Shown: in pieces, positions 2,622-56,922 of the stretch
Layout: each line of letters starts with the position of its first letter
Numbering within the stretch: position 1 is the first letter of the stretch
DNA from: a bacterium
GTDB taxonomy: Bacteria; Electryoneota; RPQS01; DYHQ01
Assembly (NCBI GenBank): GCA_030622545.1
Contig: JAUXGA010000009.1
Location: 42,203-106,202, forward strand
Reading direction: 5' to 3'
DNA: 64,000 nucleotides
Notes under the pieces: model-generated
The model's database searches: none
What the model was told of the DNA's origin: nothing
Seen by the model: only the letters and a program-made list of their open reading frames with translations
Made by a program: the position numbers and the translations under genes

Positions 2622-2655
2622 CGCCGAGCCGGGTCGCTCAGGCCCTGGCCGCAAT
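2622..2655 (+). repeat. CGCCG-family hairpin repeat
   Basis: CGCCGAGCCGGGTCGCTCAGGCCCTGGCCGCAAT; abuts the stop codon of the TPR paralog 2 gene. Confidence 0.8.
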
Positions 2656-4140
2656 CTACTTCCCGCCCAACATCTTTTCGGCCTTCTGTCTGGCAAAGGC
2701 GTAATTTATATTTAGGACCAAATGGTCCAAGAGTGGATAAAATCGGGCAGCTTTCGTATAGAACTCTTTTGCTTTCTGATGGTCTCCCTTGCTGTCGTAA
2801 GCTAATGCTATACGATAGAGATTGTATGGATGTTTTTGGTCACCTTGCTGGAACTCATCGAGAGCTCTGTCGTAGTCTCTTTCTTCAAGCGCAATCATTC
2901 CCGCCAGTTCATGAGATAGGCGAATCTGCGCTGAATTTTCAGCTACCATCACCTGTTCAAAGAAAGAATCGCACTTGGCCTTTGCCATATCAAAATCGCC
3001 TTTCTTCATAGCGATCCGACTCTCGTTATAGAGAAAGTTGCGCTGCGTATTTCTTTTAATTTCATCGGAAAGATCCGAATCCAAGAAAAGCTTTATGGAG
3101 GTCTTGTACTTCGAGAGCGCATCATCATACTGACCTTGTTCGAAAAGAATGCATGCAATATCCGCAATGTCGCGAGCCATCGCAACGGTGTCACTAATTC
3201 TTTCCGCCAAAGCATATCGCTCATTTAGCGCAGTCAGAGCCTCTTCGAACTTCCCTTCGTCTACATAAGACACCGCTTTGTTGAAATATGCGGCACGGCG
3301 TTGGCCATTGTCCTTGGCTATCTTCAAGAACTCTTGCAGTTGACTCCGGGCCTCTTTATGTTTTCCCTGATATACCCAATTTGCTGCAATGCCCATGTGA
3401 GAAGGGGTGAAATCATGTCTGATGGCCAGGGCTTTCCTATATGATTGAATAGATTCCTCAAACCGGCCCATCTTCAGCAGCAATTCAGCGTACGAGTCGT
3501 AAGGATTGGGGTCGTTGGGATTCAGCTCAATATACTTCTGGAAAGCCTTCTCGGCTTCAGGGTAGTTTTCAATGCCCCGGTTGGCGTAACCCAGTAAGTT
3601 ATAGGGAGGCGAGAAATCCGGTGCAATCTCAATTGCTTTCCTGAATTCTGCTATCGCCTCGTCATACTCCTGTTGGTCGAAGCAGTATTTCGCCAATACA
3701 TGGTGAGCCCGCTCATCTTTTGGGTATTTTTTAACAAGCTGCAAGAAGTACTCTTTCTGCTTTACCGGATCGTCGTTTTTGCCGGCTTTATCACCAAGAA
3801 TCCATAGCCGTTCACCCTCGGAAGCTTTATCAGTCAATGCACAGGCTTTATTGAAGTATTCAAAGAAATGCTTGGCGTTGGACTGAGCGAAGGCTAAATC
3901 CCGATAAGCCAGCGCAAAGTCCGGATCGAGAGCTACGGCTTGTTCGAGAACCCCGCGAGATTCATGATACAGAAACTTATCCTGAAGGTCTCTCGCCTGC
4001 AGAAAAAGTCCACGCGCTTCTTCGGATGATGTCGTGATCGGAATCTTGCCGTCATCGAGCTTTTTCTGAGTGCAGCCGAATCCCGCGAAAAGCAGGACGC
4101 TAACAATCAGCAATGCACAATAGCGAAGAAGGCTTGACAT
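2656..4140 (-). CDS. Tetratricopeptide-repeat lipoprotein (paralog 2)
   Basis: Start moved to MSSLLRY (ATG at 4140, AGGAGG RBS) by homology with paralog 1; same lipobox and TPR layout. Confidence 0.85.
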   Translation of the reverse strand: MSSLLRYCALLIVSVLLFAGFGCTQKKLDDGKIPITTSSEEARGLFLQARDLQDKFLYHESRGVLEQAVALDPDFALAYRDLAFAQSNAKHFFEYFNKACALTDKASEGERLWILGDKAGKNDDPVKQKEYFLQLVKKYPKDERAHHVLAKYCFDQQEYDEAIAEFRKAIEIAPDFSPPYNLLGYANRGIENYPEAEKAFQKYIELNPNDPNPYDSYAELLLKMGRFEESIQSYRKALAIRHDFTPSHMGIAANWVYQGKHKEARSQLQEFLKIAKDNGQRRAAYFNKAVSYVDEGKFEEALTALNERYALAERISDTVAMARDIADIACILFEQGQYDDALSKYKTSIKLFLDSDLSDEIKRNTQRNFLYNESRIAMKKGDFDMAKAKCDSFFEQVMVAENSAQIRLSHELAGMIALEERDYDRALDEFQQGDQKHPYNLYRIALAYDSKGDHQKAKEFYTKAARFYPLLDHLVLNINYAFARQKAEKMLGGK

Positions 4141-4227
4141 GATAATCCATCCTCCTGTTTGTGTGACCAATCCAAATGTATTTGGCTGTTTTCGTCCAAG
4201 CGAATCACTTTCATATTGCGGCGAGTC

Positions 4228-4253
4228 GTAGGGACAAGGCCTGCCTTGTCCGT
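4228..4253 (+). repeat. GTAG-type REP-like palindrome
   Basis: GTAG foot followed by GGACAAGGC-CT-GCCTTGTCC hairpin. Confidence 0.6.
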
Positions 4254-4267
4254 TGGTTGCTAATCGT

Positions 4268-5407
4268 CTATTCCAAAACAAAGATGCTTTTCTTCGCACA
4301 CATATCCTTGAGGATTTGAGGCCAGACAGTGACACTCACTTCGCCAAGATGGGCTTGTTTGAGCAGAAGCATGTACGTCCGTGATTGGCCGATTCCGCCG
4401 CCGATACTCAGAGGAATGTCGCCATTGATAATCGCCTGATGATAAGGCAGCTTGAGGAAATCCTGCTGACCGGTAATCTCAAGTTGCTGCTTGAGCGTTT
4501 CGGGATTGACCCGGACACCCATAGACGTCAGCTCGTGGCGGCGTTTCGTTACCGGATTCCAAACAAGAATATCTCCATTCAAACCGTGCATCGGTTTGCC
4601 GCTGGCAGAGGTCGTCTCCGTGACCCAATCATCATAATCCGCGGCTCTCATTTCATGCGGATAACCGTCAGCAAGCGTCCAGCCGATTCCATAAATGAAG
4701 ACAGCGGGATAGTCCTGAAGGATAGCCGTTTCGCGCTGCTTGCGCGGCAAATCGGGATATCGTTCAAGAATTTCTTCCGCATGGAGAAATTTAAGCTCAT
4801 CGGGAAGGCTCGGATACTTATCGGTCTTCAATTGAGGAAAAAGCTCCTGCGCATGCAGCTCAGCACCCTTAATAACTTTCCATAACTTTTTCACGACATC
4901 CGTTAGAAATTGCAGGTTCCGCTCTTTATCCGTAATGACCATCTCCCAATCCCACTGATCCACGTACGCGCTGTGGTCATGATCGAGGAAGTAATCCTTC
5001 CGCACGGCATGCATATCGGTATATAAACCTTCACCGGGTTTCATTCCAAATTGCTTCAAAGCGACGCGCTTCCACTTTGTCGCGGCCTGCACCACCTGAG
5101 CGTCAATCGGATTTTTGTCGTGGTCGTTTGAAATGTGGAATTGAATAGGAGTACGCGAGCCGTCACGATCAAGATCATCGTTGACGCCGCTTTTAACATC
5201 CACAATCAGAGGAACCTGAACGCGGATTAAATTAAGCTCTTTGCACAGTCCCGCTTCGATGTAATTCTTCACAGCGGTAATCGCTTGCTGCGTTTCCTTT
5301 GGAGTCAGCGAAGAGCGATAGTCTTTCGGTAGAATTTTTTCCAAATCCTCGTAATTGCCGATACCCGGTCCAGCTAAATCAGCTTTCTTGTCTGCAACAG
5401 TTGCCAT
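4268..5407 (-). CDS. asnA: Aspartate--ammonia ligase
   Basis: Motifs KWKR, HSAYVDQWDWE, RAADYDDW, GLNGDIL, SIGGGIGQSR; ATG start MATVADK preferred over the upstream TTG. Confidence 0.92.
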   Translation of the reverse strand: MATVADKKADLAGPGIGNYEDLEKILPKDYRSSLTPKETQQAITAVKNYIEAGLCKELNLIRVQVPLIVDVKSGVNDDLDRDGSRTPIQFHISNDHDKNPIDAQVVQAATKWKRVALKQFGMKPGEGLYTDMHAVRKDYFLDHDHSAYVDQWDWEMVITDKERNLQFLTDVVKKLWKVIKGAELHAQELFPQLKTDKYPSLPDELKFLHAEEILERYPDLPRKQRETAILQDYPAVFIYGIGWTLADGYPHEMRAADYDDWVTETTSASGKPMHGLNGDILVWNPVTKRRHELTSMGVRVNPETLKQQLEITGQQDFLKLPYHQAIINGDIPLSIGGGIGQSRTYMLLLKQAHLGEVSVTVWPQILKDMCAKKSIFVLE

Positions 5408-5453
5408 AGTGTTCTCCAAATTTCTTTGTATGGTTTGTGTGTTTAGTTAATAT

Positions 5454-5529
5454 CGCTGCGAGTGGGTGCCCTCACCCCTCGCGGACTACTTTTAACTCGC
5501 CGAGCCGGGTCGCCCGCCCCGGCCGCAAT
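5454..5529 (+). repeat. Two CGCCG-family hairpin repeats
   Basis: CGCTGCGAGTGGGTGCCCTCACCCCTCGCG and CGCCGAGCCGGGTCGCCCGCCCCGGCCGCAAT (5498-5529). Confidence 0.75.
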
Positions 5530-6017
5530 TACCTTATCACCTCAAACTCACCAATCTGTCGATTCTTTCGGACATTATCCCAGCGAAAATACCGACCGTT
5601 CATGGAAATGTAAACTCCATACGGCAGCGTCTGGACAAACGCCAAAGAACTTCCCAAATTGAACAGTCCATCAGAACTGCCGAACCGGAACGGTATCATC
5701 GCTCCGGTCAAAACGATGGTCTTATCTTTGATGGAACGAGCGAGAATCTTCGCGGTCTCGACCATCTTATCCGTGCCATGAGTAATCAGGATTCTATCCT
5801 CAGGCGTTTTCTTGCAGTTTGCCAGAATAATTTTTCTATCACTGGTTGTCATGTCGCAGCTATCGACCATCATCAACGTGCGGATGTCGATTTTAAGTCT
5901 GCAGCGACCCCGCGCAAGCATTTCATGCAGGTGCGTATCTTTGAAAAAGAGTTTTCCTTCGAGTTCGTTATACTCTTTATCGAATGTCCCGCCCGTAATA
6001 AAAATCTTAATCGTCAT
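5529..6017 (-). CDS. Short (single-domain) L-asparaginase
   Basis: TGGT and HGTD catalytic motifs, VLTGAM; 162 aa. Confidence 0.85.
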   Translation of the reverse strand: MTIKIFITGGTFDKEYNELEGKLFFKDTHLHEMLARGRCRLKIDIRTLMMVDSCDMTTSDRKIILANCKKTPEDRILITHGTDKMVETAKILARSIKDKTIVLTGAMIPFRFGSSDGLFNLGSSLAFVQTLPYGVYISMNGRYFRWDNVRKNRQIGEFEVIR

Positions 6018-6029
6018 AATTCGTCAATC

Positions 6030-6166
6030 TCCCCCCGCTTGCGGGGGGAATTAAAGGGGGGTCTCCTTAAACTTTCGCTCGCAACCTATTTTTTTTCGCC
6101 GAGCCGGGTTCAGCGCAGGTTTCCTTTTACCAAACGACAAACTTTCGCGCGTAACCCGGCCGGAAC
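6030..6166 (+). repeat. Repeat cluster: poly-C/poly-G palindrome plus long-loop CGCCG repeat
   Basis: TCCCCCCGCTTGCGGGGGGA...AAGGGGGG, and CGCCGAGCCGGGTT-~40 nt-AACCCGGCCGGAAC (6097-6166). Confidence 0.8.
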
Positions 6167-6176
6167 TCCATGCTCG

Positions 6177-8731: not shown

Positions 8732-8736
8732 TATTT

Positions 8737-9801: not shown

Positions 9802-10025
9802 CGCCGCGGTGAATCTCCAGATTCGCCCGGAATATATGTTCGCCGAGCCGGGTTAAGCAGCCTTACCGTTTCATAGTACTGAGAGGGTATTCCAGCGCAA
9901 CCCGGCCGGAATGAATCGCGGTGTGGCTGCCGGAAAAAAGTAAATATATCGCGGTGTTGTCCGCCAATTGGCGGATTGCAGCCGACCCATTTTCGCCGAG
10001 CAGGGTCCCCCGACCCTGCCGCAAT
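9802..10025 (+). repeat. Cluster of palindromic repeats
   Basis: CGCCG units at 9802-9833, 9841-9912 and 9994-10025, plus a GCGGTGTTG...TTGCAGCCGACCC unit at 9951-9988. Confidence 0.85.
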
Positions 10026-10173: not shown

Positions 10174-13100
10174 TTAATTCTTCACCGACATCACCTGATA
10201 GAAATGCTTCTCATAACTCGCCGCTTCACCTACAATCGTATACGGCGGAGCCGGAACAACAATCGGCATTCCTCCGAATGTATCCGGAGTGTCCGAAATG
10301 TAGATATTGTATTCTGTCGCATCCGTCGGCGTCCAGTCCAAAATCACATCATCGCCAGAACGCCATGCCGTCAAATCCGTGACAGGATCCGGCTCGTCAT
10401 CCCAAAGCACCTGCGCGCTGTTCGACATCGACGATTCACCATCGGAATACTGCGCCGATACTTCATAGGTATAGGTCGTGTAAGGCAAGCCGGACATATC
10501 ATCCTCGTAGGTCAGCGCCTGCACCATCGAGTCAATCTTGCTACCGTTGCGATAGATGTTGTAGCTTTCAAGAGAGCCCAGCGAAGCACCGGATGATGGT
10601 GATTCCCAGCTCAGGTACGTCGTCGAACCGATAAGCTCTGCCTGCAGGTTCTGCGGCGGATTGTTCCCGACCAAAAGGATAACGCGCACATCATCAATGT
10701 ACCAGCCTTCCGCGCCACCGCCGTTGTCGCTGCCGAAATGGAACCGAATCTGGACATCACCCGAATACGCTCCCAAATCACACACCACTTCGCTCCACGA
10801 AATGTTATCGCTGAAGCATGGTGTCGCACACGCAAATGGTCCGGTGTATGGGCTGCTGCCTCCGGCTGTGCAGCGCGTGACTTTATTATAGCCGCCTGTG
10901 GGCGTGAGCTGCTCCCAAGGACCGCCGCCCTCGGAAATCTCAATGATACCCGCGTCGTATGCCGAATCCGAATAGTAGATGGAAACTTCCGCTTCTATCC
11001 AGTGCCAGAAGCGCAGTTCAGCGTGACCAGAGAGATTTATCGTCGGCGTGATCAGCACAGCGTCCATATGATTTGCGTAATCGCCTGTGCCCGTGTCACC
11101 GCACTTCCATGCGTGCGTTGGCGATTGATAATCTTCCGTGGAAATATGCCATTGATCTGTCCAGCCGGCTTGATCCTCCTGATGTAACCAACCGCCCACG
11201 CCATTTTCTATCGTGTCATAGAAACCGCCGATAGGCAACTCAAGCATGACGTGTTCCATACGTCCACCGTCCATCGTCACTTCGAGATAGAAAAACGCGC
11301 GATCCATTCCCGGAGCAGTCGGCAGTACTTCAACCGTGAACGTTGTCATAGCGCTGGAATGTCCGGCGTCGAGCAGCACAAGTGTGCCGGTGCTCTGTGT
11401 GATATTCAAATCGTCATGGTCTGTCGTCAATGTCCCGACAAGAGAGCTGGCGCTGGATGAACCGTCATTGTAGAGTGTCAATGTCAACGTCACAGTTTCG
11501 CCCGCATCCATCACGCCGTTATTGTTGCCGGTGGCATCGTCCACCAGTGAGGATGAAACCGTCAGCGCAGGCGCGTGAGCCGTAATCGTGAATGAATCAG
11601 TCCATTCTTCCCGCGCACCGTCTGATGCCGTTACGCTGACATTAATCACAAAACCGTCCGGAACATCAGCGGATACGTCAGCTTCGAAACCGTTCGGGAT
11701 AACTTTCTGCTGGCTCGCTGTAATCGTTCCGTAGTCTTCGGAATTATCAGTAATGTTCAGATACGCGTCTGTTGTAGCGATTGTCACCATGACGTTATTC
11801 GCATCTTCGTTCCCGATATTTTCTTCGGTTAAAGTAATATCCAAGGTCTCGCCGAAGTCCGCCAGGCCATCGCCGTTTCCACCGGCCGTGTCGTCAACAT
11901 CTACATCAGCCGTTACGATATACGGACCTGCGCTGGGGATAACCTCAATCGTTGTGATAACCGGTTGACGATTCTGCCGCGTGATCACGAGGTCGGTATT
12001 TCCGGGAGTCGTGAAAGGCTCAAAATTAAGAGTGAGTTCACCGGTCTCATCCACTAATCCCGCGGCATAGAGTACGCCGTCACGACTAAGGCCCACATAG
12101 GACCAAGGATCGGCCGTAACCTGAATTGAGCTCAGACTGATTAAAATCTGGCTCGGATAGTCCACGACATTTACGGATGGCACACCGAAATAGGTACTCA
12201 GTGCGGGGTCACCCATCAGGGCATAAATCTCCCAGTAATAATTGATCCGACTGCTGCCACCATCCACGACAGCCAAGTTGCCCGCCATAATGGCCGCATA
12301 CTGAGTAGTATACCACTCGGAGAAACTCTCGCCATGATCGTGGAATATGCCATCGTAAGCGCCGGGTCCTGTGCTCTCATAGGTCGGATTCGCGACAATA
12401 GAACCATTGCCAACTCCCCACCAATAGTCCTCGTCCCAATAGGTGCTATTTGTGCCGCCAATGTAACCTATTGCACCTTTGTCCTCGGCGCGCAGCCAAG
12501 CTTCACCGAAGCAATTTCCCACATCGAAACTGTTAGTCAGGCAGCAGTTGCCGACAACGGTGGGATACTCGCTCGCGTTCTGCAGGCCGTCGATGTTGGA
12601 AATCGTGAAGCTGGGATTCGACCAAGATGTGGTGCTACCGTGCGCCGTGTAATTTGCATAACCCACGCCTTCGCTAACATTCTGGATAATGTCGGCTGAG
12701 TGATTTTGCGACTCGGGACAGAGATAGGTGTGCGAATAGATCCCGTGGCTCGCATTGAAGTAGTAAGTCGTGCCGTAGTTGATCTGCCCATTTCCCCATG
12801 TAGAACAGTAAGTGGCGTCATAGCCGGCAATCATTACTACTTCACCTAAGAAACTGGGATCGGGCATTTCATAGCGTTCGTACTCCAAGGTTTTGTCAAT
12901 CTGAGGCTGGAGCTCTGAGGTGTTGCGGGCCGAGAAACGACCATAGTACATTTCGGGCATATAGTCACCGCCGTCAAGGGCCACATAATGCAGGTCAGTA
13001 ACATGTCCGCCCGTATTTCCGTTCCAAGCCGGGACCTCACTCACATCACCTACGAAAAGTACAAAACTCGGCTTGGGATTTTCGGTGTCGTATATGCCTT

Positions 13101-13995
13101 GGATGTAGCTCTTAATCGAGGCTGTGGTCGTTCCCACCTCAGGATCGCCCACATAGCCGACAAACATTTCGTAGCCCTTCTTTATCTTCCATTCGATAAA
13201 AGGCTGAAGCTGGGTTTCAAACATGGGATCAGCAACGATGATGTACTTCACAGGATAGCGGATAATGTCATCGAGTATGGGAACCGGCTCGTAGTTCAAT
13301 ACGAACTGCTGGTAAATGCCCTCAAAGTAAGGCGACCAAGTTCTTCTACGAAGGTCGCTTGTTGCCGCCGCATCTCCGCCGCTGAAATCAATCCTGACCT
13401 CCAGATTATTGTAGACGGCTACCGTATGACTAACAGGATTATACTTCACGGGTTCCACGACCAAAGTGAAAAGCCGCATTCCGCGCAAAATACCCATCTC
13501 TTCAACATGAACCACTGGGTTGTCGCCGTAACCATTAACCGTATAGGCAGCTGCATCATAGACAAATGGCACATCTTCCGGCAATTGACTCTTGGAAACC
13601 GATGGTTGAGCGGGCATCAGAGGTTGTGCAATGCCCTGCACAGCCAGCTCTATCTCCTCGACATTGTAACGAACGGCTTCTACCGAGATTTCAGCGTCGA
13701 GTGGTACGGAAATGATTTGGTAACTTACCGGAAGTTTAGGTTCACCGAGCCTCGTGCTGTAACTAAGATTCGGGATGCTGATGTGACTGAAAAGGCCGCG
13801 TTCAGTCTGCACGTCAAAACCCTCGATCCGCGAAAATCCGTACATCACGCTCAGGCCATTGTCGCTGCTACTGAGCACCTGCACGGCATCCTCCTGTGCC
13901 GCCAAGTCAATGGAACTTGCGCCGTAAGCAGGCAAGCTCGCAAAGCAAATCAGCGCTACTATGCTAACAAAAGTTCCCATGCGATTCCTCATCAT
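10174..13995 (-). CDS. Secreted gingipain-like C25 cysteine peptidase, multidomain
   Basis: Signal peptide, propeptide (GEPKLPV), catalytic YTAHG and GNCCLT, Ig-like and GWYIDD jelly-roll modules, FN3-like tail. Confidence 0.9.
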   Translation of the reverse strand: MMRNRMGTFVSIVALICFASLPAYGASSIDLAAQEDAVQVLSSSDNGLSVMYGFSRIEGFDVQTERGLFSHISIPNLSYSTRLGEPKLPVSYQIISVPLDAEISVEAVRYNVEEIELAVQGIAQPLMPAQPSVSKSQLPEDVPFVYDAAAYTVNGYGDNPVVHVEEMGILRGMRLFTLVVEPVKYNPVSHTVAVYNNLEVRIDFSGGDAAATSDLRRRTWSPYFEGIYQQFVLNYEPVPILDDIIRYPVKYIIVADPMFETQLQPFIEWKIKKGYEMFVGYVGDPEVGTTTASIKSYIQGIYDTENPKPSFVLFVGDVSEVPAWNGNTGGHVTDLHYVALDGGDYMPEMYYGRFSARNTSELQPQIDKTLEYERYEMPDPSFLGEVVMIAGYDATYCSTWGNGQINYGTTYYFNASHGIYSHTYLCPESQNHSADIIQNVSEGVGYANYTAHGSTTSWSNPSFTISNIDGLQNASEYPTVVGNCCLTNSFDVGNCFGEAWLRAEDKGAIGYIGGTNSTYWDEDYWWGVGNGSIVANPTYESTGPGAYDGIFHDHGESFSEWYTTQYAAIMAGNLAVVDGGSSRINYYWEIYALMGDPALSTYFGVPSVNVVDYPSQILISLSSIQVTADPWSYVGLSRDGVLYAAGLVDETGELTLNFEPFTTPGNTDLVITRQNRQPVITTIEVIPSAGPYIVTADVDVDDTAGGNGDGLADFGETLDITLTEENIGNEDANNVMVTIATTDAYLNITDNSEDYGTITASQQKVIPNGFEADVSADVPDGFVINVSVTASDGAREEWTDSFTITAHAPALTVSSSLVDDATGNNNGVMDAGETVTLTLTLYNDGSSSASSLVGTLTTDHDDLNITQSTGTLVLLDAGHSSAMTTFTVEVLPTAPGMDRAFFYLEVTMDGGRMEHVMLELPIGGFYDTIENGVGGWLHQEDQAGWTDQWHISTEDYQSPTHAWKCGDTGTGDYANHMDAVLITPTINLSGHAELRFWHWIEAEVSIYYSDSAYDAGIIEISEGGGPWEQLTPTGGYNKVTRCTAGGSSPYTGPFACATPCFSDNISWSEVVCDLGAYSGDVQIRFHFGSDNGGGAEGWYIDDVRVILLVGNNPPQNLQAELIGSTTYLSWESPSSGASLGSLESYNIYRNGSKIDSMVQALTYEDDMSGLPYTTYTYEVSAQYSDGESSMSNSAQVLWDDEPDPVTDLTAWRSGDDVILDWTPTDATEYNIYISDTPDTFGGMPIVVPAPPYTIVGEAASYEKHFYQVMSVKN

Positions 13996-14446: not shown

Positions 14447-14585
14447 CGCCGAGCATGGTCCCCCGACCCTGCCGCAATATTCGCCTAGACGCGTAAAAAA
14501 TAAGACAATCGTTCAAGAAATTGCACTAAAGAAAGAGCGGCCCCAGAAAATACATTTCAGGGCCGCCCATAGTTCAAGTACTTTT
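14447..14585. repeat. CGCCG repeat plus duplicated downstream region of the C25 genes
   Basis: Highly similar to 9994-10133. Confidence 0.9.
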
Positions 14586-16869: not shown

Positions 16870-17335
16870 GCATTCCTCCTACCAGATCTTGAGCTTTCCT
16901 TTTCGTAGCTCAGTTTAGAATAATTATCAAATACTTACAATTACAAGCAACCCATTTTTTCGCAACCTGAAAAATACGCAAAAAACATGTCATATGCAAG
17001 CAAAATTCCCTCCAAGCCCTGATTTTCAGCGAGTATATCAAAGCGCGAGAAATTTCATAAAGCAATAAAAAACATTTGACCCTTACCAGAGATTTCCCTA
17101 TATTCTGGTAATTACAGGATTTCCCCTGCGTTTTTGCGCCGGTTAACACCAAGTTCCGCATTTTCCTACGACAACCAACCCACCCGCCGAGAGGCAACAA
17201 ATTTCCCCCCGCGTGTGGGGGGAGACAAGGGGGGTAAAATACGCAATTTCGCCGAGCTGGGTTTTCGCCGCGGCATGCGTCCCGCGTACCCGGAATGTTG
17301 AATATTATCGTAGGGGCCGATCTGTGACCTGCTCG
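16864..17335. repeat. Duplicated upstream region of the C25 genes, copy 2, ending in a repeat cluster
   Basis: Similar to 13990-14410; carries a poly-C/G palindrome (~17204), CGCCG units (17250, 17266-17297) and a GTAG unit. Confidence 0.9.
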
Positions 17336-20325: not shown

Positions 20326-20363
20326 CGACCGCCGAGGCAGATTGGCGAATCTACCCGGAATGT
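20174..20363 (+). repeat. Direct repeat copy 1 (ade 3' end plus CGCCG hairpin)
   Basis: Aligns with 22213-22401. Confidence 0.9.
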
Positions 20364-22075: not shown

Positions 22076-22212
22076 CGCAGGATGATATTACCGTTGTGGA
22101 TTCCCAAATACGCAATGAGTACTAACATAGCCAAATAAAACACCCGCTATGAACGCTTACCAACATCTCCGTACACCTCTCGAGCGCTTCTGGCGCGCAC
22201 TCCTCGGCGAGA

Positions 22213-22401
22213 AAGCCGCCACCTCTCTCGGAGTAAAAATCAACGCTCCCTTCATGGCGCTTTCGTTTCTGGCCTTGCCGGTTATCCATCACCTGAAACT
22301 GACCGATAAAGGCCTCGTGGATGTCGACAAATTCGCAATCGTTCCCTTGGGGGTGGATTCGTAACAACCGCCGAGGCAGATCCCTGATCTGCCCGGAATG
22401 T
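22213..22401 (+). pseudogene. Diverged duplicate of the last ~50 codons of ade plus its downstream hairpin repeat
   Basis: AATSLGVKINAPFMALSFLALPVIHHLKLTDKGLVDVDKF matches the ade C-terminus. Confidence 0.88.
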
Positions 22402-23674: not shown

Positions 23675-23691
23675 CGGAAAAATAATTTAAC

Positions 23692-23794
23692 CGCCGCGAG
23701 GGGTGTCCTCACCCCTCGCGCGACATTCCGCCGAGCCGGGTCGCTCAGGCCTCGGCCGCAATACTCGCCGTTGTGGGTATCGTTTATCCGCAAT
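23692..23794 (+). repeat. Three CGCCG-family repeats
   Basis: Units start at 23692, 23729 and 23766. Confidence 0.8.
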
Positions 23795-24852: not shown

Positions 24853-27501
24853 TTAGCGCAATTCCCGCCCGGCTACAGCCTTAATCGTTATCGTTAAGCG
24901 CCGGTTGTAGTTTTTTATCTCGTAGGTTTGCGGTCTGCCGCCGGGAATGAAAAGAGTCAGATAGCTTGGTTTTGATTCAACCAGACCGCCGAAATATTGC
25001 ACAAAACTATGTTGACTTGTTGTACCTTTTCCGCCTTGGATTTGCCGAAGCTGAAGAAGTTTTCCCTGCGCAAGTTCGAGAATTATCCCCACGGCCGAGC
25101 GGTTGCCTTTCACATCTATCAGTTTGATTTCCAGCCAGCCGTGTGGATTCGTTTCGTTGCGAAAAAGCCGGACGCCCGAACCTGATCCGACAATCAAGTC
25201 AAGATCTCCGTCCGAATCATAATCCGAGAACGCACATCCCCAACCATTGAATGCGCGCACACCGGCTAAATAGGTGACGTCGGTGAAATGCCCGCCATTG
25301 TTTAGATAAAGAAACGAGCGCAGATTCTTATAGATGGACGTAACAAACAAATCAAGGTCGCCGTCACCATCCACATCTCCCCACGCCGGATCCGAATGCG
25401 TCTCCTCAAACTTAATGCCGCGAAACACTCGCTCATCCTTCCACAGCGAATCGGTCTTGCCGGGGTTGACATAGAGCATCATCTTGTTTGAGAATTCGAT
25501 ATAGCGCGGATGCGCAAGATTCGCGCAGATGATATCGAAATCGCCGTCATTATCAAAATCACCCCATTCCGACCCTATCGTATGACCGAACCAGTTCTCC
25601 ATCTCTTCACCGTTCAAATGAAGTTCCGGAGCGATGTTGACAAACCCACCTCGTGAATTATTTTGAAATAAAAAATTCTCCTGCAGGCGATAATTCGAGA
25701 CGTGGCAGTCAGCATCGCCGTCTCCATCGAAATCACACCACGCCACTCCTCGACCACAGCGAGGTTCGTCAAACGGCGGCATCATTCCGCGCTCGGATGT
25801 CTCGCGTCGAAACGTGCCGTCGCCTTGATTCATAGTGAGAATATCCGGTGTGCCGCTGCTTCGTGAACTGGGGTTTTCATAATTCGCAACATACAAATCG
25901 AGGAAGCCGTCATTATCCGCATCCGCCCACGCCGCGCCTTCCGAAGACGACGAATCGCACATCATCCCCGCTTTTTCTGTAGCATCTTCAAACATACCGT
26001 CCGGCAGTGCGCGCCATAATTTGTCTCCGCACTCGCCGTCGCCCGTCGCGTAGAAATCCAGATGACCGTCATTGTCATAATCCCCCCAAACACCACCGGA
26101 TGCTCCTGCCGCAATACCCGCGACTTCTGTGATGTCAATAAAAACGCCGTCATCATTTCGAAGCAAAACCGAACCGGAAAGAAGAAGGTCATCGTCGCCA
26201 TCGTTATCGAAATCGCCCCAAGCGACGCGAGATTGGTGATAGCCTTCCAAACCAACTTCCTCTGTCACATCTTGAAAAATCGGCCCAGTGTAATTCGTTG
26301 CTTCACGCGCCCATTCGAGTGGAGCAGCGACGCCGATTGCCCGCAGCGTCGAGTCCGCTTTCGGTGTCCAGAGATTGCGCCGGTCGCCCGCGATAAGAGC
26401 TTCCGCAAGAGCAAGCTTCGCGCGCGCTGTATCAGAGACAAGATAACTCCACGCACCAAGGACATGCAGACCGCAAAGCGTCAAATCGTCTTCCATATCC
26501 AAAGGCGACGTGTCGATACTGCTCCGATATAGTCGCAGAGCGTTTTCGGTTTTTCCGTTTTTCAAAAGACTCCAGACAAGGCTCTCGTGAATTGAAAGCC
26601 ACAATCGTTTCGTTTCATAGGTGCGCTGCATCGGATGCTTAGCGTCAGGAAAACGATATGACTTGGACAGTTCACGCGCTTTCTCACTCCAGCTTGGCGC
26701 TTTCACCGGCAGCGTATCCAGACGAACACACCACGCCGCAGTTGCAGAGTAGGGAAGAGGACTTGCGGTTTCTTCGGTTATCCATCGCTCAGCATAGAGA
26801 AAAAGGGAATCATCTCTTCCGGCGTCTTCGCATGCCGATAGCAGAAACCGGTACGCTTCATTTCGCCAGAACGAATGCGGATATTCTTGTGTGAACTTGT
26901 CGCAGAAATGAATTTTCTTTTCGGCATCTCGCCAGATAGGGTAAAGGCTGTCGTAGAACATTTCACCGAGAAAATCATAGCCGGTCTGATTATCCGGAAA
27001 CATGCGGACAAGCGAATCGAGATAGACAACGAATCGCACTGTATCAAGAGCCATCCTTGACGAAATCGCTAACATCTCAAGACGATTCTCTTTGAGTAAA
27101 AACCTTGCTGTTTGCTCAGCTTCTTGAGTAATTGACTTGCAGACTTGCATCGTATCGACGAGTCCTTTTTCAGCCAGACCTGACAAACATTCCCACCGTG
27201 CTTTCCAGAATTCGACATTGGCCGCGTCCTGACGCAAGACATTCTGCCACGCCGCCGCAGCGTGTTCGTATTCGCGCCAAGCTTGATACGTCCGCGCAAC
27301 TTCGACAAGCGTTGCAACATCCTGATAGTCATTTTCAAGGATGGGCTTGAGAAGGTAGATGGCTTCCTCGAAGCGATATTCCCGCCGCAATGTCTCTATT
27401 TTATCCTGCATCGCATCATCGAGAGCAAAGACGCACGACACCCAAAAGGCGACGATAAAGAATAAAAGTACGTATCTATAGCGAAGAATTCTAGGAAACA
27501 T
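24853..27501 (-). CDS. CRTAC1/ASPIC-UnbV family FG-GAP repeat protein with TPR-like N-terminus
   Basis: Repeated WGD(F/Y)DNDGxxD motifs, FxDVTxxxG linkers, signal peptide. Confidence 0.88.
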   Translation of the reverse strand: MFPRILRYRYVLLFFIVAFWVSCVFALDDAMQDKIETLRREYRFEEAIYLLKPILENDYQDVATLVEVARTYQAWREYEHAAAAWQNVLRQDAANVEFWKARWECLSGLAEKGLVDTMQVCKSITQEAEQTARFLLKENRLEMLAISSRMALDTVRFVVYLDSLVRMFPDNQTGYDFLGEMFYDSLYPIWRDAEKKIHFCDKFTQEYPHSFWRNEAYRFLLSACEDAGRDDSLFLYAERWITEETASPLPYSATAAWCVRLDTLPVKAPSWSEKARELSKSYRFPDAKHPMQRTYETKRLWLSIHESLVWSLLKNGKTENALRLYRSSIDTSPLDMEDDLTLCGLHVLGAWSYLVSDTARAKLALAEALIAGDRRNLWTPKADSTLRAIGVAAPLEWAREATNYTGPIFQDVTEEVGLEGYHQSRVAWGDFDNDGDDDLLLSGSVLLRNDDGVFIDITEVAGIAAGASGGVWGDYDNDGHLDFYATGDGECGDKLWRALPDGMFEDATEKAGMMCDSSSSEGAAWADADNDGFLDLYVANYENPSSRSSGTPDILTMNQGDGTFRRETSERGMMPPFDEPRCGRGVAWCDFDGDGDADCHVSNYRLQENFLFQNNSRGGFVNIAPELHLNGEEMENWFGHTIGSEWGDFDNDGDFDIICANLAHPRYIEFSNKMMLYVNPGKTDSLWKDERVFRGIKFEETHSDPAWGDVDGDGDLDLFVTSIYKNLRSFLYLNNGGHFTDVTYLAGVRAFNGWGCAFSDYDSDGDLDLIVGSGSGVRLFRNETNPHGWLEIKLIDVKGNRSAVGIILELAQGKLLQLRQIQGGKGTTSQHSFVQYFGGLVESKPSYLTLFIPGGRPQTYEIKNYNRRLTITIKAVAGRELR

Positions 27502-27639: not shown

Positions 27640-27746
27640 CGCCGCGAATGTGTACCTCGCTCTTCGCGGTAAAAATTCGCCGTCTTAGTGGTATCGCATA
27701 CTCGCAACATTCACGCCGAGGCAGATCCCCTGACCTGCCCGGAATG
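27640..27746 (+). repeat. Three CGCCG-family repeats
   Basis: Units at 27640, 27678 (degenerate) and 27714-27746. Confidence 0.8.
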
Positions 27747-34758: not shown

Positions 34759-34956
34759 CGCCGAGGCAGATCCCCTGATCTGCCCGGAATGTTACAAATG
34801 ACCGCCGAGCGGGGTCCCCGACCCCGCCGCAAGTCGTCGCGGTGTTGTCCACCAGTACTGGTGGATTGCAGCCGATCCATGAGCTCGCCGAGCCGGGTTA
34901 GCGCTGTTTTCTTTTGGCTAAGCAATAAGGCTATCGCGCGTAACCCGGCCGGAATG
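34759..34956 (+). repeat. Cluster of palindromic repeats
   Basis: CGCCG units at 34759-34791, 34803-34833 and 34886-34956; GCGGTGTTG unit at 34839-34878. Confidence 0.85.
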
Positions 34957-41048: not shown

Positions 41049-41152
41049 CGCCGTGGTGGGTGTCACCCACCCGGAAATGAACCGTCGAGCCGGGTCGCCT
41101 GACCCGGCCGCAATACCGCTGAGGCTGATTAGATACGGCAGAGGCCGGAATG
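41049..41152 (+). repeat. Three CGCCG-family repeats
   Basis: Units at 41049-41079, 41083-41114 and 41117-41152 (degenerate). Confidence 0.8.
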
Positions 41153-41946: not shown

Positions 41947-42489
41947 ATGAAAGACGATCTGCTTAAAAAAATCCCCGAAATCAATCAAATCACCGACAAA
42001 GACATCCGCGAGAAAACCATCGCCGCATTTCTGGACGCACTGCAGAGTGGTGGATGGAACGTTTCCGACCTCGACCGGATTCCCTTTTCATTGCTGATTC
42101 CCGATAATCCCGTCAGCTTCCTGACGCATACACGCGCCGTCACGGCTGTCGCGCTGAAAGCCGCCGAAGTTTTAAACGAAACCTATAAAGAGCATTTTCA
42201 AATAGACTTTGACATTCTGCTTTCCGGAGCGATTCTGCATGACGTCGGTAAACTGCTGGAATACAAAGAAACGACCAAAGGTTTTCAGAAGAGCGACTAC
42301 GGACGCGTCATGCGGCACCCGTTTTCCGGAGCGGGACTGGCACTGAAACACGGTTTGCCGGGGGAAGTGCAGCACATCATTGCCACGCACGCACATGAAG
42401 GCGACGGCGGCTATCGCACTCCCGCATCCGCAGTCGTCCACCACGCCGACTTCATGAATTTCGATCCCCTGCGTGCTTTGATTAAATAA
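41947..42489 (+). CDS. HD-domain phosphohydrolase
   Basis: HT...AILHDVGK, RHPFSG, HIIATH, HHAD. Confidence 0.9.
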   Translation: MKDDLLKKIPEINQITDKDIREKTIAAFLDALQSGGWNVSDLDRIPFSLLIPDNPVSFLTHTRAVTAVALKAAEVLNETYKEHFQIDFDILLSGAILHDVGKLLEYKETTKGFQKSDYGRVMRHPFSGAGLALKHGLPGEVQHIIATHAHEGDGGYRTPASAVVHHADFMNFDPLRALIK

Positions 42490-42502
42490 GGGAATAGAGC
42501 TC

Positions 42503-42564
42503 GCGGTGTTGGCTGTTTGCAGCCGACCCAAAATCCGTAGGGGCGCTCCCACGTGTGCGCCCGT
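42503..42564 (+). repeat. GCGGTGTTG unit plus GTAG REP-like palindrome
   Basis: GTAGGGGCGCTCCCACGTGTGCGCCCG is identical to the copy at 52663. Confidence 0.75.
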
Positions 42565-49146: not shown

Positions 49147-49231
49147 GCGAGAATGGCGGAACTGGCAGACGCGCCAGACTTAGGATCTGGTGCCCCAGAA
49201 GGGCGTGGGGGTTCGACTCCCCCTTCTCGCA
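49147..49231 (+). tRNA. tRNA-Leu(TAG)
   Basis: Acceptor GCGAGAA/TTCTCGC-A, anticodon arm CCAGA-CTTAGGA-TCTGG, long variable arm, GGTTCGACTCC; CCA not encoded. Confidence 0.96.
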
Positions 49232-50588: not shown

Positions 50589-50686
50589 TCCCCCCGCGTG
50601 CGGGGGAACCATTCCTCGCCGAGCCGGGTTCAGCGCTCGTTTCGGTCAATCAACCAGTGAGTTTTCGCGCGTAACCCGGCCGGAAC
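50589..50686 (+). repeat. Poly-C/G palindrome plus long-loop CGCCG repeat
   Basis: Same arrangement as 6030-6166; CGCCG unit at 50617-50686. Confidence 0.85.
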
Positions 50687-50740: not shown

Positions 50741-51346
50741 ATGTCACTCGTTCCCATGGTCATTGAACAGACAGGGCGTGGGGAGCGTGCCTTTGATATT
50801 TTCTCAAGGCTGCTCAAAGAAAGAATCATTTTCATCGGGACTGCGATTGACGATACGGTCGCCAGTCTCGTGATTGCGCAACTGATCTTTCTATCCGCCG
50901 AAGACCCCGACAAGGACATCAGTATCTACATCAACAGTCCGGGAGGTCTCGTCACATCAGGGCTCGCCATCTACGATACCATGCAATACATCAAACCCGA
51001 TATCGTGACGATTTGCATGGGGCAGGCGGCGTCTATGGCGGCGGTGCTTTTGGCGGCGGGAAAATCGAACAAGCGCAGCGCGCTACCGAACGCCCGCATA
51101 ATGCTTCATCAACCGCTCGGCGGAGTTCAGGGACAGGCGGTGGATATCGAGATTCACGCCAAGGAAATCCTGAAGATTCGCTTGCGGCTCAATGAAATCA
51201 TTGCAAGTCACACGGGTCGCGATGTCGAGCAGGTCGAAAAGGATACAGACCGCAACTACTTCATGTCCGCGGAAGAAGCGAAAGATTACGGTATCATCGA
51301 CGAAATCGTCGTACCTAAAATCAGCACGAACGATAAAAAGAAATAA
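50741..51346 (+). CDS. clpP: ATP-dependent Clp protease proteolytic subunit
   Basis: [40 protein letters not shown]. Confidence 0.97.
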
Positions 51347-51374
51347 CCGGATACGTTTATCCGGAAAGGTTTTT

Positions 51375-52613
51375 ATGACAGCCGAGGATACTCCCGTTTG
51401 CTCATTCTGCGGTCGCGCGGAAAAGCAGGTGCAGACCCTGCTGAAATTCCAGAATGGAGTTGCGATTTGCGATGCCTGCGCCGAGCAGGCTTTTCAGATT
51501 ACGCAATTGAACCGCGCCGGCAGACGGCGCTTGACCATTGATTCGTTTCCCATTCCTGAGGAAATTAAAAGTCAGCTTGATGACTATGTCATCGGGCAGG
51601 AGCAGGCGAAACGGCGTGTGGCGGTAGCGGTTTATAATCACTACAAACGCATCAACGCGCGCTCAAAACCTTCGACGGTCGAACTCGAAAAATCGAATAT
51701 CCTGCTTGTCGGCCCCACGGGCACCGGCAAAACATTGATGGCGCAGACGCTCGCGCGCTTCCTTCAGGTGCCGTTCGCTATCGCCGATGCGACGACCATC
51801 ACCGAAGCGGGCTACGTGGGCGAAGACGTGGAAAATGTTCTTGTGCGTCTTCTGCAGGCCGCCGATTACAGTGTTGAGCGAGCGGAGATAGGTATCGTCT
51901 ATATAGATGAGCTCGATAAAATCGCCCGTAAAGAAACGAATGTCTCGATAACGCGCGACGTGTCAGGCGAGGGTGTTCAGCAAGCTCTCTTGAAAATCCT
52001 CGAAGGAACCGTGGCTTCCCTGCCGCCTCAAGGCGGGCGCAAACATCCGGAACAGAAACTGATTTCCCTCAATACGAAGAACGTTCTTTTCATTTGCGGT
52101 GGAGCTTTTGAAGGCTTGGAAAGGATTATCCGGTCACGCGTCGCGAAGCGGCCGATGGGTTTTGGAGCCGGAGAAACGGAAACAAGCGAATTTTCTCCCT
52201 ATGAATTGCTCTCGCAGGCCAGTTATGAAGACCTGCTGAAATTTGGTCTGATTCCGGAACTCATCGGACGGTTGCCGGTCATCTCGGCTTTCTCTGATTT
52301 GGATGAAGATGCACTCGTAAAGATTCTGGTGGAACCGAAGAATTCACTGGTCAAACAATACGAATACCTCTTCGAGATGGAGAACGTCACACTGACCTTT
52401 GCCGATGGAACTCTCGAAGCCATAGCGAAACTCGCTATAGAACGCAAGACCGGCGCTCGAGCGCTTCGCTCCATTCTTGAAGAAACCATGGTGAACATCC
52501 TCTACGAGATTCCCGGTCGGAAGGATGTCGCCGAAGTGATTATCACTCCAGAAGCCGTGCGGGAAAAAACCTCACCGCGCATCATCTCCGCCGAACAAAA
52601 AATCAGCGCCTAA
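51375..52613 (+). CDS. clpX: ATP-dependent Clp protease ATP-binding subunit
   Basis: CSFC...CDAC zinc finger, [29 protein letters not shown]. Confidence 0.97.
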
Positions 52614-52620: not shown

Positions 52621-52736
52621 CGCCGAGGCAGATCCCCTGATTTGCCCGGAATGTAAAAATTTGTAGGGGCGCTCCCACGTGTGCGCCCGCATTTGAATAC
52701 ACCGATTAACGGGCAGACACTTGGGTCAGCCCCTAC
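52621..52736 (+). repeat. CGCCG repeat plus inverted GTAG REP pair (REPIN-like)
   Basis: CGCCG unit at 52621-52653; GTAGGGGC...GCCCCTAC at 52663-52736. Confidence 0.85.
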
Positions 52737-52783
52737 AACAGATAAATACACCACGCCATCGTTGCCTTTCTTCAGCCAAAAAA

Positions 52784-55344: not shown

Positions 55345-55367
55345 TTCGTATAAAGATCGAAAAAAAG

Positions 55368-55395
55368 AAACCGGATTTCTCTCCGGTTTTTTATT
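55368..55395 (+). terminator. Intrinsic terminator
   Basis: AAACCGGA/TCCGGTTT stem plus T run. Confidence 0.7.
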
Positions 55396-55586
55396 TCCCC
55401 CCGCATGCGGGGGTAACCTTTCCTCGCCGAGCCGGGTTCCCCAAATCGCCGCGAGTGGGTGCCCCCACCCCTCGCGTAAAGTGATGCGGTGTTGGCTGCT
55501 TGCAGCCGACCCTTTTCCCTACGGGCTGGCTCTGCCTGTCCTGTCTTTCACGGCATCACACCGACGGGACAGAGCCCGCCGGTAGG
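55396..55586 (+). repeat. Cluster of palindromic repeats
   Basis: Poly-C/G unit, CGCCG units (55425 partial, 55447-55476), GCGGTGTTG unit (55486-55512), CCTAC...GTAGG hairpin. Confidence 0.8.
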
Positions 55587-55633
55587 ATGATGTTGTTCAC
55601 TCGCAATGGCAGAATTGCCCGGAACTAAAAAAC

Positions 55634-56809
55634 ATGAACCAAACGCAAGCCTTCATCACGTTCATCCTCGCCATTCTGACTATTTCCGGTCTTCTGCATT
55701 GGTTCCTCTATGCACGGTTGGTTATAGCACTGAACATCACGTCAACCACTGTGTTATGGTCGCTTCGATTTCTGGCTGGGTTTCTGGCAATTTCCTTTAT
55801 TCTTGCCCGTATGTTGGACACGTTCGCGCCGCGCCCTCTGGTTCTGGCGTTCGACGGATTCGCGTCCGTCTGGATGGGGATGATGTTTCAGCTCCTATGG
55901 ATAACGTTTGATTTGTGGATTCTCAAACTGTTGCTTAGGTTGACAGGTCTCTGGGGAAGATTGCCGCACGCAGCCGTGGGGAAAGTCTCTGTTCTTGTCG
56001 TTTTCGCAGTTGCGGTGGCGTTGTGTACATGGGCAATGGTAATCGCGCAGCGTCCTGCGCGTGTTGTCAATGCTCATGTGCCTGTCAAAGGCATTACTTC
56101 GGAACTGCGGCAAATGAAAATCGCAATGGTCGCTGATTTTCACGCGGGTTTGCTGGTGAGCAAGAACAAGGTTGAGTATTGGGTGCAGGAAATTAACCAG
56201 CTCGAACCGGATGTGATTTTAATTCCGGGCGATGTTATTGAACGTCCGCCGCATCGCATGATGGAATTTGCCGATGCTTTCCGCAAACTGAAAGCCCCAC
56301 TCGGCGTGTATGTTTCCACCGGCAATCATGAATATTTTGTCGGATTGAACAGCGCGCTAAAATTTTTCGAAGCAGCGAACATGCGCGTGCTGATGAACGA
56401 CGTAGAAACACTTCCCGGCGGACTTCTGCTTGCCGCTGTCGAAGATCAGACAGCTTCCATGTGGAAACGACCGATTCCGCCGATGAATGAATTGTTAGGG
56501 GATAGCGCCAAAGACCATCCAACGATTTTGATGAATCACACACCTTCAACCCGCGGCGCTCGAAAAGCAACTGCAGTGGGTGTGGATTTAATGGTTTCCG
56601 GCCATACGCATGGCGGGCAGATGTGGCCGTTTTCGTATCTTTCCCGTCTGGCCTATCCGTTTCATCACGGTTTGTATCCCGTCAATGACGGCTACCAGCT
56701 CACAACCTGCGGCATCGGCACATGGGGCCCGCCGATGCGGCTTGGCACCTCACCCGAAATCCTCCTGATTCACCTCGTCGGCAAAGACGAACCCGCCACC
56801 AATAAATAA
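55634..56809 (+). CDS. Membrane-bound metallophosphoesterase (YkuE-like)
   Basis: N-terminal TM helices; DFH, GD, GNHE, SGHTHGGQ, GTWGPPMR. Confidence 0.9.
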   Translation: MNQTQAFITFILAILTISGLLHWFLYARLVIALNITSTTVLWSLRFLAGFLAISFILARMLDTFAPRPLVLAFDGFASVWMGMMFQLLWITFDLWILKLLLRLTGLWGRLPHAAVGKVSVLVVFAVAVALCTWAMVIAQRPARVVNAHVPVKGITSELRQMKIAMVADFHAGLLVSKNKVEYWVQEINQLEPDVILIPGDVIERPPHRMMEFADAFRKLKAPLGVYVSTGNHEYFVGLNSALKFFEAANMRVLMNDVETLPGGLLLAAVEDQTASMWKRPIPPMNELLGDSAKDHPTILMNHTPSTRGARKATAVGVDLMVSGHTHGGQMWPFSYLSRLAYPFHHGLYPVNDGYQLTTCGIGTWGPPMRLGTSPEILLIHLVGKDEPATNK

Positions 56810-56818
56810 CCTCATCAC

Positions 56819-56922
56819 GCGCAACCCGGCCGGAATTCCAAACCTCCGCCGCGGCGAATCCCCAGATTCGCCCGGAATGGTGCTCCATGCGAAGCCGAGC
56901 ATGCAAGACGCATGTCGCGGCG
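56819..56922 (+). repeat. CGCCG-family repeats (right half, complete, degenerate)
   Basis: AACCCGGCCGGAAT; CGCCGCGGCGAATCCCCAGATTCGCCCGGAATG (56847-56879). Confidence 0.8.

Follow-up and report, generated by a model that had tools for sequence, protein, structure and literature searches.

We analysed a 64,000-nt stretch of DNA (the window; positions 42,203 to 106,202 of contig JAUXGA010000009.1, assembly GCA_030622545.1) from an uncultured bacterium of the phylum Electryoneota, whose intergenic gaps carry 20 complete copies of a bulged hairpin. We conclude with high confidence that these hairpins are a family of repetitive extragenic palindromic (REP) elements with its own REP-associated tyrosine transposase (RAYT). 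The system is of a known kind, REP/RAYT; an unusual conserved foot and a one-way orientation over long stretches set it apart. A first-pass annotation of the window had proposed REP- or attC-like repeats served by an enzyme that acts on single-stranded DNA (ssDNA) and is encoded outside the window, and such an enzyme was indeed found, a RAYT of the HUH/Y1 type on another contig bracketed by inverted copies of the repeat. The genome of the window (G000) is a draft of 2.66 Mb in 20 contigs with 50.8% GC, the window lying within contig C2. It was compared with 30 relatives, giving a set of 31 genomes.

The hairpin family

The complete copies, 16 short and 4 with a long loop, occupy 15 intergenic sites of the window and all read on the + strand. 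About three partial copies (17249, 41120-41151 and 56815-36) accompany them, so the total falls short of the "about 30" first announced. The window was scanned on both strands for a structure consisting of CCG, one free base, an 8-nt arm, a loop of 3-60 nt, a complementary arm with at most one mismatch, and CG[GC]AA. All 20 matches lay on the + strand, and 18 of them are family members. The other two, at 26970 and 47837, were dropped as chance matches, being inside long open reading frames (ORFs) and at noise level with the covariance model described below. The copies at 41049 and 41083 were missed by the scan and added from the sequence.

Short units measure 29-34 nt and long-loop units 70-72 nt. 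As ssDNA, the short unit folds with CCG/CGG as a 3-bp foot, above which come a single bulged base, a stem of 8 bp and a loop of 3-4 nt. Units of the long form have, in addition, an inner GCGC stem and a variable centre of ~30 nt; the four long-loop copies that had been noticed at 6097, 9841, 34886 and 50617 were all found again, with loops of 42-44 nt. The frame initially described, CGCCG-N-8-bp arms-CG(G/C)AA(T/C), was cited for six stems. It was recovered at all six in outline, but at 41049 the stem is of 7 bp and the loop of 3 nt, and the copy at 41083 starts with CGTCG. All nine sequences submitted to DNA folding were predicted to form the bulged hairpin, and for the five short-copy sequences among them none of 200 shuffles folded as well (z-scores -3.5 to -6.0). 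The half-site words TCGCCGAG and CCCGGAAT occur 18 and 12 times, against 4.1 and 3.1 expected.

A covariance model, R1, was built from the 16 short window copies and run on both strands with filters off. In the window it scored these copies at 29-52 bits, all on the + strand, while the next best match on either strand reached 16 bits; as the 16 are the training copies their scores are expected, and the informative part is the gap to all other matches. Across G000, a scored scan accepted 180 copies where a reversed-genome control predicts ~11. After removal of 13 copies deep inside ORFs >600 nt, 167 confident copies remained in the 2.66 Mb. When the frames were sought without any stem requirement, the distribution in G000 was bimodal, at least 7 of 8 positions being paired in 74/311 frames versus 1/100 in the reversed genome. 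R1 matches were obtained in 28 of the 31 genomes, with only 150 candidates scored per genome, and one relative (G010; 1.58 Mb fetched) holds 172 copies versus 2 in its control. A covariance model and a genome scan had been suggested as checks; the copy number in G000, set against the control, shows that the family is real.

From 24 genomes, namely G000 and 23 relatives, 24 RAYT loci were fetched, and 44 copies found at 16 of these loci were aligned to measure covariation. In this alignment 97.1% of cells are paired, versus 77% when shuffled and 27-47% with slid partners, and 8/11 pairs change on both sides; fitting of the sequences to the model does, however, bias the alignment towards the structure. 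The single unpaired base and the compensated changes of the stem, both described in the first-pass annotation, were recovered in the bulged fold and in the covariation. These data show a repeat family with a conserved fold and covarying stems. Among the 167 copies of G000, the long form accounts for 81, followed by the stem types GGCAGATC (28), GGCATGCG (17), GCAGGGTC (10), GGCGAATC (9), GGTGGGTG (8) and GCCGGGTC (6), with 8 others. Most sites (133/148) hold a single copy, and the 15 multi-copy clusters are purely direct in 11 cases and of mixed orientation in 4. In flank profiles of 147 copies from G000 and 172 from G010, conservation is confined to YY-CGCCG at one flank and CGGAAT at the opposite one. 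No Rfam family matches the repeat; the only Rfam match in the window is a tRNA.

The RAYT gene and known REP systems

A Pfam Y1_Tnp search of G000 returned two genes. One of them, G000:C16:15067-15549, lies outside the window on another contig and encodes a HUH/Y1 protein of 160 aa. Two + copies of the repeat stand just upstream of it and two - copies just downstream, the repeats reading towards the gene, and the GCAGGGTC-type stem found beside it is also that of the window copy at 9994. A search for a RAYT or TnpA gene flanked by the repeats, one of the checks proposed at the outset, thus yielded one. The protein matches NCBIfam NF047646 ("REP-associated tyrosine transposase") with 84 bits (cut-off 80) and Pfam Y1_Tnp (PF01797) with 33.6 bits (cut-off 23). 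H61, H63, Y122, N126 and P127 do not vary among 27 homologues, in which W101 is conserved to at least 90%; the motifs are the HuH motif DHLH, a W followed by Q or R, and YMHHNP or YIHANP. Structure prediction from the single sequence gave a pLDDT (predicted local distance difference test) of 38 and was replaced by a model based on the 27-sequence alignment, with a pLDDT of 93.2. The top PDB match of this model in a fold search is 4er8_A, the E. coli RAYT in complex with a REP hairpin (E 1.1e-8, template-modelling scores 0.75/0.73). The ISDra2 and IS608 transposases rank below it, IS200/IS605-type TnpA proteins occupying ranks 2-29, and a PDB search by sequence gave a weak ISDra2 match only (E 0.065). 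The gene lies between an HU-like gene and xseA, and neither tnpB nor insertion sequence (IS) ends accompany it.

These results show that the C16 gene is a RAYT and that it is bracketed by this repeat family. It is the sole homologue in G000 at E <= 1e-10, and homologues are present in 29/31 genomes. A search of genome contigs for related loci gave only distant RAYTs of other phyla, with <=33% identity over most of the protein. The inverted bracket, + upstream and - downstream, recurs at 13 of the 24 RAYT loci; at 3 others a repeat stands on one side, and 8 have none at E <= 0.01. At the bracketed loci the frame CGCCG...CGGAAT is constant and the stem differs by genome, the stems including GGCAGATC, GCAGGGTC, GGCGCCCG, GCGGGGTG, GGCAGGTC and GGCGGGTC. 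This is the layout of a REPtron, with the usual pairing of a RAYT and its own REP type.

The second Y1 gene of G000 is divergent (L002, G000:C1:64001-67312, ORF 1450..2106, - strand, 218 aa) and matches NF047646 with 57 bits, below the cut-off. Around it are copies of a third hairpin family, whose foot is GTAG (GTAGGGGCG...CGCCC), and one of these copies is inside the ORF of the Y1 gene itself; the window has one copy of this family near 42550.

REPs, in the passages of Quentin 2018 (PMC6006769) that set out their rules, are short (21-65 nt) extragenic hairpins in many copies, with GTAG or GTGG 0-2 nt 5' of the hairpin foot and either a 2-5 nt loop on a basal stem of 7-20 paired nt or a pair of stems with a 1-3 nt bulge between them. 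The present family agrees in size, extragenic location and copy number (29-34 and 70-72 nt, 167 copies), and its copies flank the cognate gene in inverted orientation, at C16 and at 13 of the 24 loci. It has two stems separated by a 1-nt bulge, the basal stem being of 3 bp (CCG/CGG) and the upper of 8 bp, and the foot is preceded by YCG on the top strand and ATT on the bottom strand. It is not organised as inverted doublets of the bacterial interspersed mosaic element (BIME) or REPIN type, since 133/148 sites in G000 are single and 11/15 clusters direct. The foot thus differs from the GT[AG]G of the REP rules in those passages, and Rfam likewise offers no matching family.

One of the closest systems is that of E. 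coli, REP/BIME with TnpA-REP (RAYT, YafM, 4ER8; TnpAY1 subclass 2.2), as described in passages of Ton-Hoang 2012 (PMC3333891) and PMC6006769. Both have a high-copy extragenic hairpin with a mispaired or bulged stem, a stand-alone HUH/Y1 gene of ~160 aa (DHLH, Y-x3-NP) between inverted copies, and stems that covary next to a short, constant single-stranded foot. However, GT[AG]G, which according to these passages the E. coli enzyme requires in order to cleave, is lacking 5' of the hairpin, and the constants here are YCG, CCG...CGG and AAT. E. coli and Pseudomonas REPs are moreover mostly inverted pairs (most E. coli REPs being BIME pairs; PMC3333891), whereas copies are mostly single here, and the host belongs to an uncultured non-proteobacterial order. 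The RAYT motifs (DHLH, W-Q/R, YMHHNP/YIHANP) fall between the consensus sequences printed for TnpAY1 subclasses 2.2 and 2.5 (PMC6006769). The REPINs of P. fluorescens SBW25, in the corresponding passages of Bertels & Rainey 2011 (PMC3116915), are likewise RAYT-associated with several sequence groups per genome, but their replicating unit is an inverted doublet, whereas the unit here is a single hairpin or a direct cluster of hairpins.

IS200/IS605 elements (IS608, ISDra2) have a TnpA of the same HUH/Y1 fold, which in the account of PMC6006769 recognises subterminal ssDNA hairpins with an extrahelical base and inserts with a bias to the lagging-strand template. Unlike them, the present family lacks an element body with its left and right ends and lacks tnpB, and it is the hairpin itself that is repeated. 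Class 3 TnpAY1 systems of Acidobacteria and Planctomycetes, with atypical hairpins and a CnGA foot (same passages of PMC6006769), share the non-GTAG foot and the occurrence in non-proteobacterial phyla, some with hundreds of copies. Their enzymes have NHVH and Y-x4-Q, whereas the RAYT described here has DHLH and Y-x3-NP.

Orientation of the copies and its possible origin

According to the first-pass annotation every copy reads on the + strand whatever the direction of the flanking genes. The independence from transcription held across G000, with genes called simply as longest ORFs. Relative to the repeat, the flanking genes are co-directional at 57 copies, anti-directional at 44, convergent at 19 and divergent at 15, and orientation is therefore independent of transcription; 44 further copies lie inside called ORFs, mostly short spurious ones over repeat clusters. 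The uniform strand holds in the window and throughout contig C2 (24/24 +), but not genome-wide, where 109 copies are + and 58 are -, labels which are relative, as contig strands in G000 are arbitrary. Besides C2, the most polar contig of G000 and the one that contains the window, C18 (24/26 +, spread over 450 kb) and C20 (12/14 +) are mostly +, and C4, C9, C13 and C16 are mixed. Adjacent sites agree in 87/126 pairs (p 2e-5), and in 70/109 (p 0.004) when C2 is left out. The polarity is real but regional, and rests mainly on C2 and C18.

A link of this polarity to replication was sought with several proxies. In G010, 65/70 + copies lie where the + strand has negative GC skew at third codon positions (GC3 skew), and 51/79 - copies where it is positive. 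With arrays collapsed to sites, the top strand of the repeat falls on the C3-rich strand 49 versus 13 times (p 5e-6), and this link survives repeat masking. The trend has the same sign in G011 (8 versus 4 at ±20 kb, 11 versus 5 at ±10 kb). The sign of the association, top strand on the C-rich strand, is identical in G010, G011 and G000, and it is significant only in G010. On contig C6 of G010, - copies make up 18/20 in 0-60 kb and + copies 15/15 in 100-160 kb, with dnaA at 45 kb; this flip across dnaA coincides with gene bias and with the second axis of a singular value decomposition (SVD) of 5-mer strand asymmetry in 40-kb segments, whose axis 1 is gene strand and whose smoother axis 2 resembles replication-type skew. 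On contig C16 of G010, orientation turns from + to - at ~160 kb together with the skew, and a RAYT gene lies at that point. In G000, orientation on C13 turns from + to - near 50 kb, ~20 kb from dnaA. The R1 matches on the 1.93-Mb contig C1 of G016 are 12 + and 5 - at 76-750 kb and 4/4 - at 1.55-1.78 Mb; sampled every 100 kb, the + strand of this contig has negative GC3 skew in 17/20 samples, and its gene bias flips near 1.15 Mb. The orientation of tRNA genes was tried as a replichore marker and rejected, with too few genes per contig.

The leading strand is usually G-rich. On C6 of G010 the sign of the GC skew is opposite to this convention, and on C13 of G000 the skew fits dnaA and the gene bias does not. 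GC skew is no simple replichore marker in this order, and the calls from dnaA and gene bias disagree with the G-rich rule on these two contigs.

We propose that the hairpins are REP elements recognised as folded ssDNA by a dedicated RAYT, and that their one-way runs come from action on one strand of the replication fork; taken as a whole, we consider this explanation probable. The RAYT, as an HUH/Y1 nuclease, would recognise the hairpins as folded single strands and copy or maintain them, and the C16 enzyme presumably binds and cuts them. The constant YCG, the CCG/CGG foot, the bulged base and the 3' AAT are likely the recognition surface: foot, bulge and hairpin shape would be read, and the 8-bp stem would be free to change as long as it stays paired, diverging between genomes along with the RAYT copy that it flanks. 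The passages of PMC3333891 and PMC6006769 considered here document single-strand action at the fork for IS608 and ISDra2 and put it forward for REPs; those of PMC3333891 pose how a RAYT moves or maintains REPs in the cell, and its coupling to replication, as an open question. Action of the enzyme on the one template strand exposed at the fork might then give rise to long one-way stretches, to which orientation-preserving local duplication and prolonged vertical inheritance would add. Literature searches and the passages considered of PMC6006769, PMC3116915 and PMC3333891 yielded no statement of genome-wide replication polarity of single REPs; nearest are the tandem REP arrays of SBW25, whose direction is forward to one side of the origin and reverse to the other and thus linked to replichores (passages of PMC3116915).

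Several results weigh against this explanation. GT[AG]G is absent on both strands from the alignment and from the flank profiles of the 147 G000 and 172 G010 copies, and at least seven stem types coexist in G000 with a single RAYT. All genomes are draft metagenome-assembled genomes. Without C2 and C18, adjacent sites agree in 49/84 pairs (p 0.16). In G000, where GC3 skew was split into gene-strand and replication parts, orientation is significantly linked neither to GC3 skew (Fisher p 0.21-0.37 by copies; 66 versus 52 sites) nor to gene-strand bias (p 0.15-0.44), and total GC skew in rings 0-80 kb around the copies gives r of -0.10 to +0.10. Agreement with asymmetry axis 2, at 107/167 copies, is not established (p 0.056, contig-flip null). 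The link seen in G010 is local, r being -0.54 for distances of 1-5 kb, -0.18 for 15-40 kb and +0.18 for 40-80 kb, in a genome where GC3 skew changes sign 1-5 times per contig, that is, as a mosaic, and where, on contig C2, 17 copies are - and 3 are + across 0.5 Mb that show no steady skew. Replichore calls from skew disagree with those from dnaA and gene bias on C6 of G010 and C13 of G000. Of the replication-strand polarity first suggested, then, regional coherence and a local skew link in G010 stood, and a significant link to skew or gene bias in G000 did not; as a rule of the family it is weakly supported. The fork would offer one account of the one-way runs, but in G000 the evidence for it is weak and much of the pattern may be local history.

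The repeats could thus be REPs whose orientation reflects only flank-carrying duplications, growth of tandem clusters, vertical inheritance and chance, seen in a window that happens to be the most polar, a reading that we hold possible but rather doubtful. It draws on the absence of significant skew and gene-bias links in G000 and of coherence outside C2 and C18, on the multi-copy clusters that are purely direct in 11/15 cases, on the many G010 copies held in tandem arrays, and on two sites of the window. The site at 20330 is filled in G000 and in both genomes of the same genus, with a decayed stem in G001 and a partial duplication in G002, as expected of long-lived copies. The copy at 22369 came with ~150 nt of upstream flank that match, in direct orientation, the 3' end of the gene preceding the 20330 site. 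At its junction (window 22100-22368), G000 keeps only the first ~90 nt of a gene that is intact in G001 (~1.3 kb; L143, G001:C97, 3180-4510), by sequence reading a sigma-54-type activator; the 22369 site is a deletion plus a duplication with the REP at the junction. Copies can therefore be old, and direct local duplication occurs. A comparison of filled and empty sites with the same-genus genomes gave no clean pair, both flanks being matched at only 2 of 6 sites queried, and for this reason the element ends and target site are defined by conservation only. Local history alone fits less well with the 15 sites of the window, which lie in unrelated gaps across 55 kb, or with the 24/26 + copies over 450 kb of C18, neither of which flank duplication can explain. 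The G010 skew link persists with arrays collapsed (49 versus 13), and trends of like sign are seen in G011 and G000. Moreover, in four other asymmetric intergenic families 60/89 copies agree with the nearest REP, 0.3-30 kb away, and all 9 of their copies on C2 are +, although the strand labels of these families were chosen after the data were seen and each family alone is weak (p 0.04-0.39).

That the hairpins are instead host RNA signals, such as terminators or stabilisers of mRNA 3' ends, kept by selection and with an incidental transposase nearby, we find improbable. All 20 window copies do lie between ORFs, several of them 0-10 nt from a stop codon, and E. coli REPs are reported to stabilise mRNA and terminate transcription (REP passages of PMC6006769). 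Yet the asymmetric frame is kept whatever the direction of the flanking genes (57/44/19/15), the inverted bracket of the RAYT recurs at 13/24 loci, and no Rfam family matches. No T-run follows the hairpin either: after AAT the sequence is mixed, with T at 24-54% per position over the next 10 nt, and an intrinsic terminator was rejected on this ground. The folded hairpin, the extrahelical base and the strand asymmetry also recall the attC sites of integron-type tyrosine recombinases, a likeness drawn at the outset that did not survive, and we give this origin next to no weight. The core sites of attC are RYYYAAC and GTTRRRY, and neither is present in the repeat alignment. The copies stand among housekeeping genes and not in cassette arrays, and the bracketed gene, the partner enzyme, is a RAYT and not a tyrosine recombinase, no search of the genome for an integron integrase (IntI) having been made.

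REP/RAYT systems are well known in Proteobacteria, and if the polarity were local history only, this would be one more REP family in one more lineage. As its copies are mostly single, asymmetric and abundant, their orientation can be read, unlike that of the inverted pairs of E. coli and Pseudomonas. It is tempting, if distinctly speculative, to go further and see here, in an uncultured order, a REP class whose RAYT reads a non-GTAG foot (ATT/CG around a CCG-bulge-stem hairpin) and which spreads as single hairpins into one template strand of the fork, its orientation being a fossil record of fork direction and later inversions, and other asymmetric intergenic families of G000 obeying the same rule. 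If orientation tracks fork direction in a closed genome, the family would provide a direct genomic test of lagging-strand-template action by RAYTs; in metagenome-assembled genomes it would also mark the direction of replication and reveal inversions. With its foot constant and its stem free, it offers a substrate series for RAYT recognition without GTAG.

Individual copies and other elements of the window

The copies are described here in order along the + strand, on which all of them read, with R1 scores for the short ones; the long-loop ones rest on scan and folding. The first, at 2622..2655 (37.5 bits), abuts the stop of the - strand ORF 2656..4335 and has the stem GCCGGGTC/GCCCTGGC, with one mismatch, and the tail CGCAAT; the same tail follows GCCGGGTC/GCCCCGGC at 5498..5529 (47.2 bits). 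A long-loop copy at 6097..6166 has the outer stem GCCGGGTT/AACCCGGC, the inner GCGC stem and a 42-nt variable centre. A direct cluster of three begins at 9802..9833 with GGTGAATC/GATTCGCC, which includes a G-U pair (44.9 bits), continues with a long-loop copy of 44-nt centre at 9841..9912 and ends at 9994..10025 with GCAGGGTC/GACCCTGC and the tail CGCAAT (52.0 bits), the stem type found beside the RAYT gene. The stem GCATGGTC/GACCCTGC at 14447..14478 (47.7 bits) has one mismatch, and GGCATGCG/CGCGTACC at 17266..17296 (37.6 bits) is preceded by the truncated 5' half of a long type at 17249-17263.

The two sites considered above for persistence and local copying have the stems GGCAGATT/AATCTACC (20330..20361, 42.7 bits), the orthologous site being filled in two same-genus species, and GGCAGATC/GATCTGCC (22369..22399, 47.6 bits), with the ~150 nt of flank copied from the former. 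At 23729..23762 (37.7 bits) the stem GCCGGGTC/GCCTCGGC encloses a 6-nt loop, and a CGCCG-framed hairpin of another family, Z, stands before it at 23691-23726. The stem GGCAGATC/GACCTGCC follows at 27714..27745 (47.3 bits). The second direct cluster of three consists of GGCAGATC/GATCTGCC at 34759..34790 (52.3 bits), GCGGGGTC/GACCCCGC with the tail CGCAAG at 34803..34833 (41.0 bits) and a long-loop copy at 34886..34955. The lowest score, 29.1 bits, belongs to 41049..41077, with its 7-bp stem GGTGGGT/ACCCACC, 3-nt loop and bulged T; beside it, 41083..41114 (48.3 bits) combines the 5' frame CGTCG with GCCGGGTC/GACCCGGC. The last long-loop copy lies at 50617..50686. The copy at 52621..52652 (50.2 bits) stands 8 nt past the stop of ORF 51192..52613 and has the stem GGCAGATC/GATTTGCC with a G-U pair, and that at 56847..56878 (46.9 bits) has GGCGAATC/GATTCGCC, preceded at ~56815-56836 by the 3' half of a long type.

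Other repeats were noticed alongside. A second REP family with the canonical GTAG foot (core GTAGTGCCGCACGGCAGTGCGC) has 46 copies in G000, often as inverted pairs ~135 nt apart and thus REPIN-like, for example at G000:C3:44665/44801 and C12:18315/18451; a window copy lies at ~37807 (C2:80009, - strand). An intergenic module, GCGGTGTT-GGCTGC-TT-GCAGCC-GACCC, with a longer variant containing GTCCACCAGTACTGGTGGAT, has ~37 copies in G000. In the window it is found at 9937-9992, 34835-34880, 42490-42530 and 55470-55510, the last two being C2:84721 and C2:97704; all four C2 copies are +, and the module often abuts REPs of either family, forming BIME-like mosaics. Two small hairpin families are CGCCGCGAGGGGTG...CACCCCTCGCG, with 26 copies and a CGCCG start as in the REP (window 23691-23726), and CCCCCCGCGTGYGGGGGG, with 12 copies (window 17203-17222). 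The window also encodes a tRNA (Leu by ARAGORN; 49147-49231, + strand) and, at 10174-13995 on the - strand, a gingipain-type protease of 1273 aa (Peptidase_C25, propeptide and C-terminal Ig-like domain), which adjoins a radical-SAM gene.

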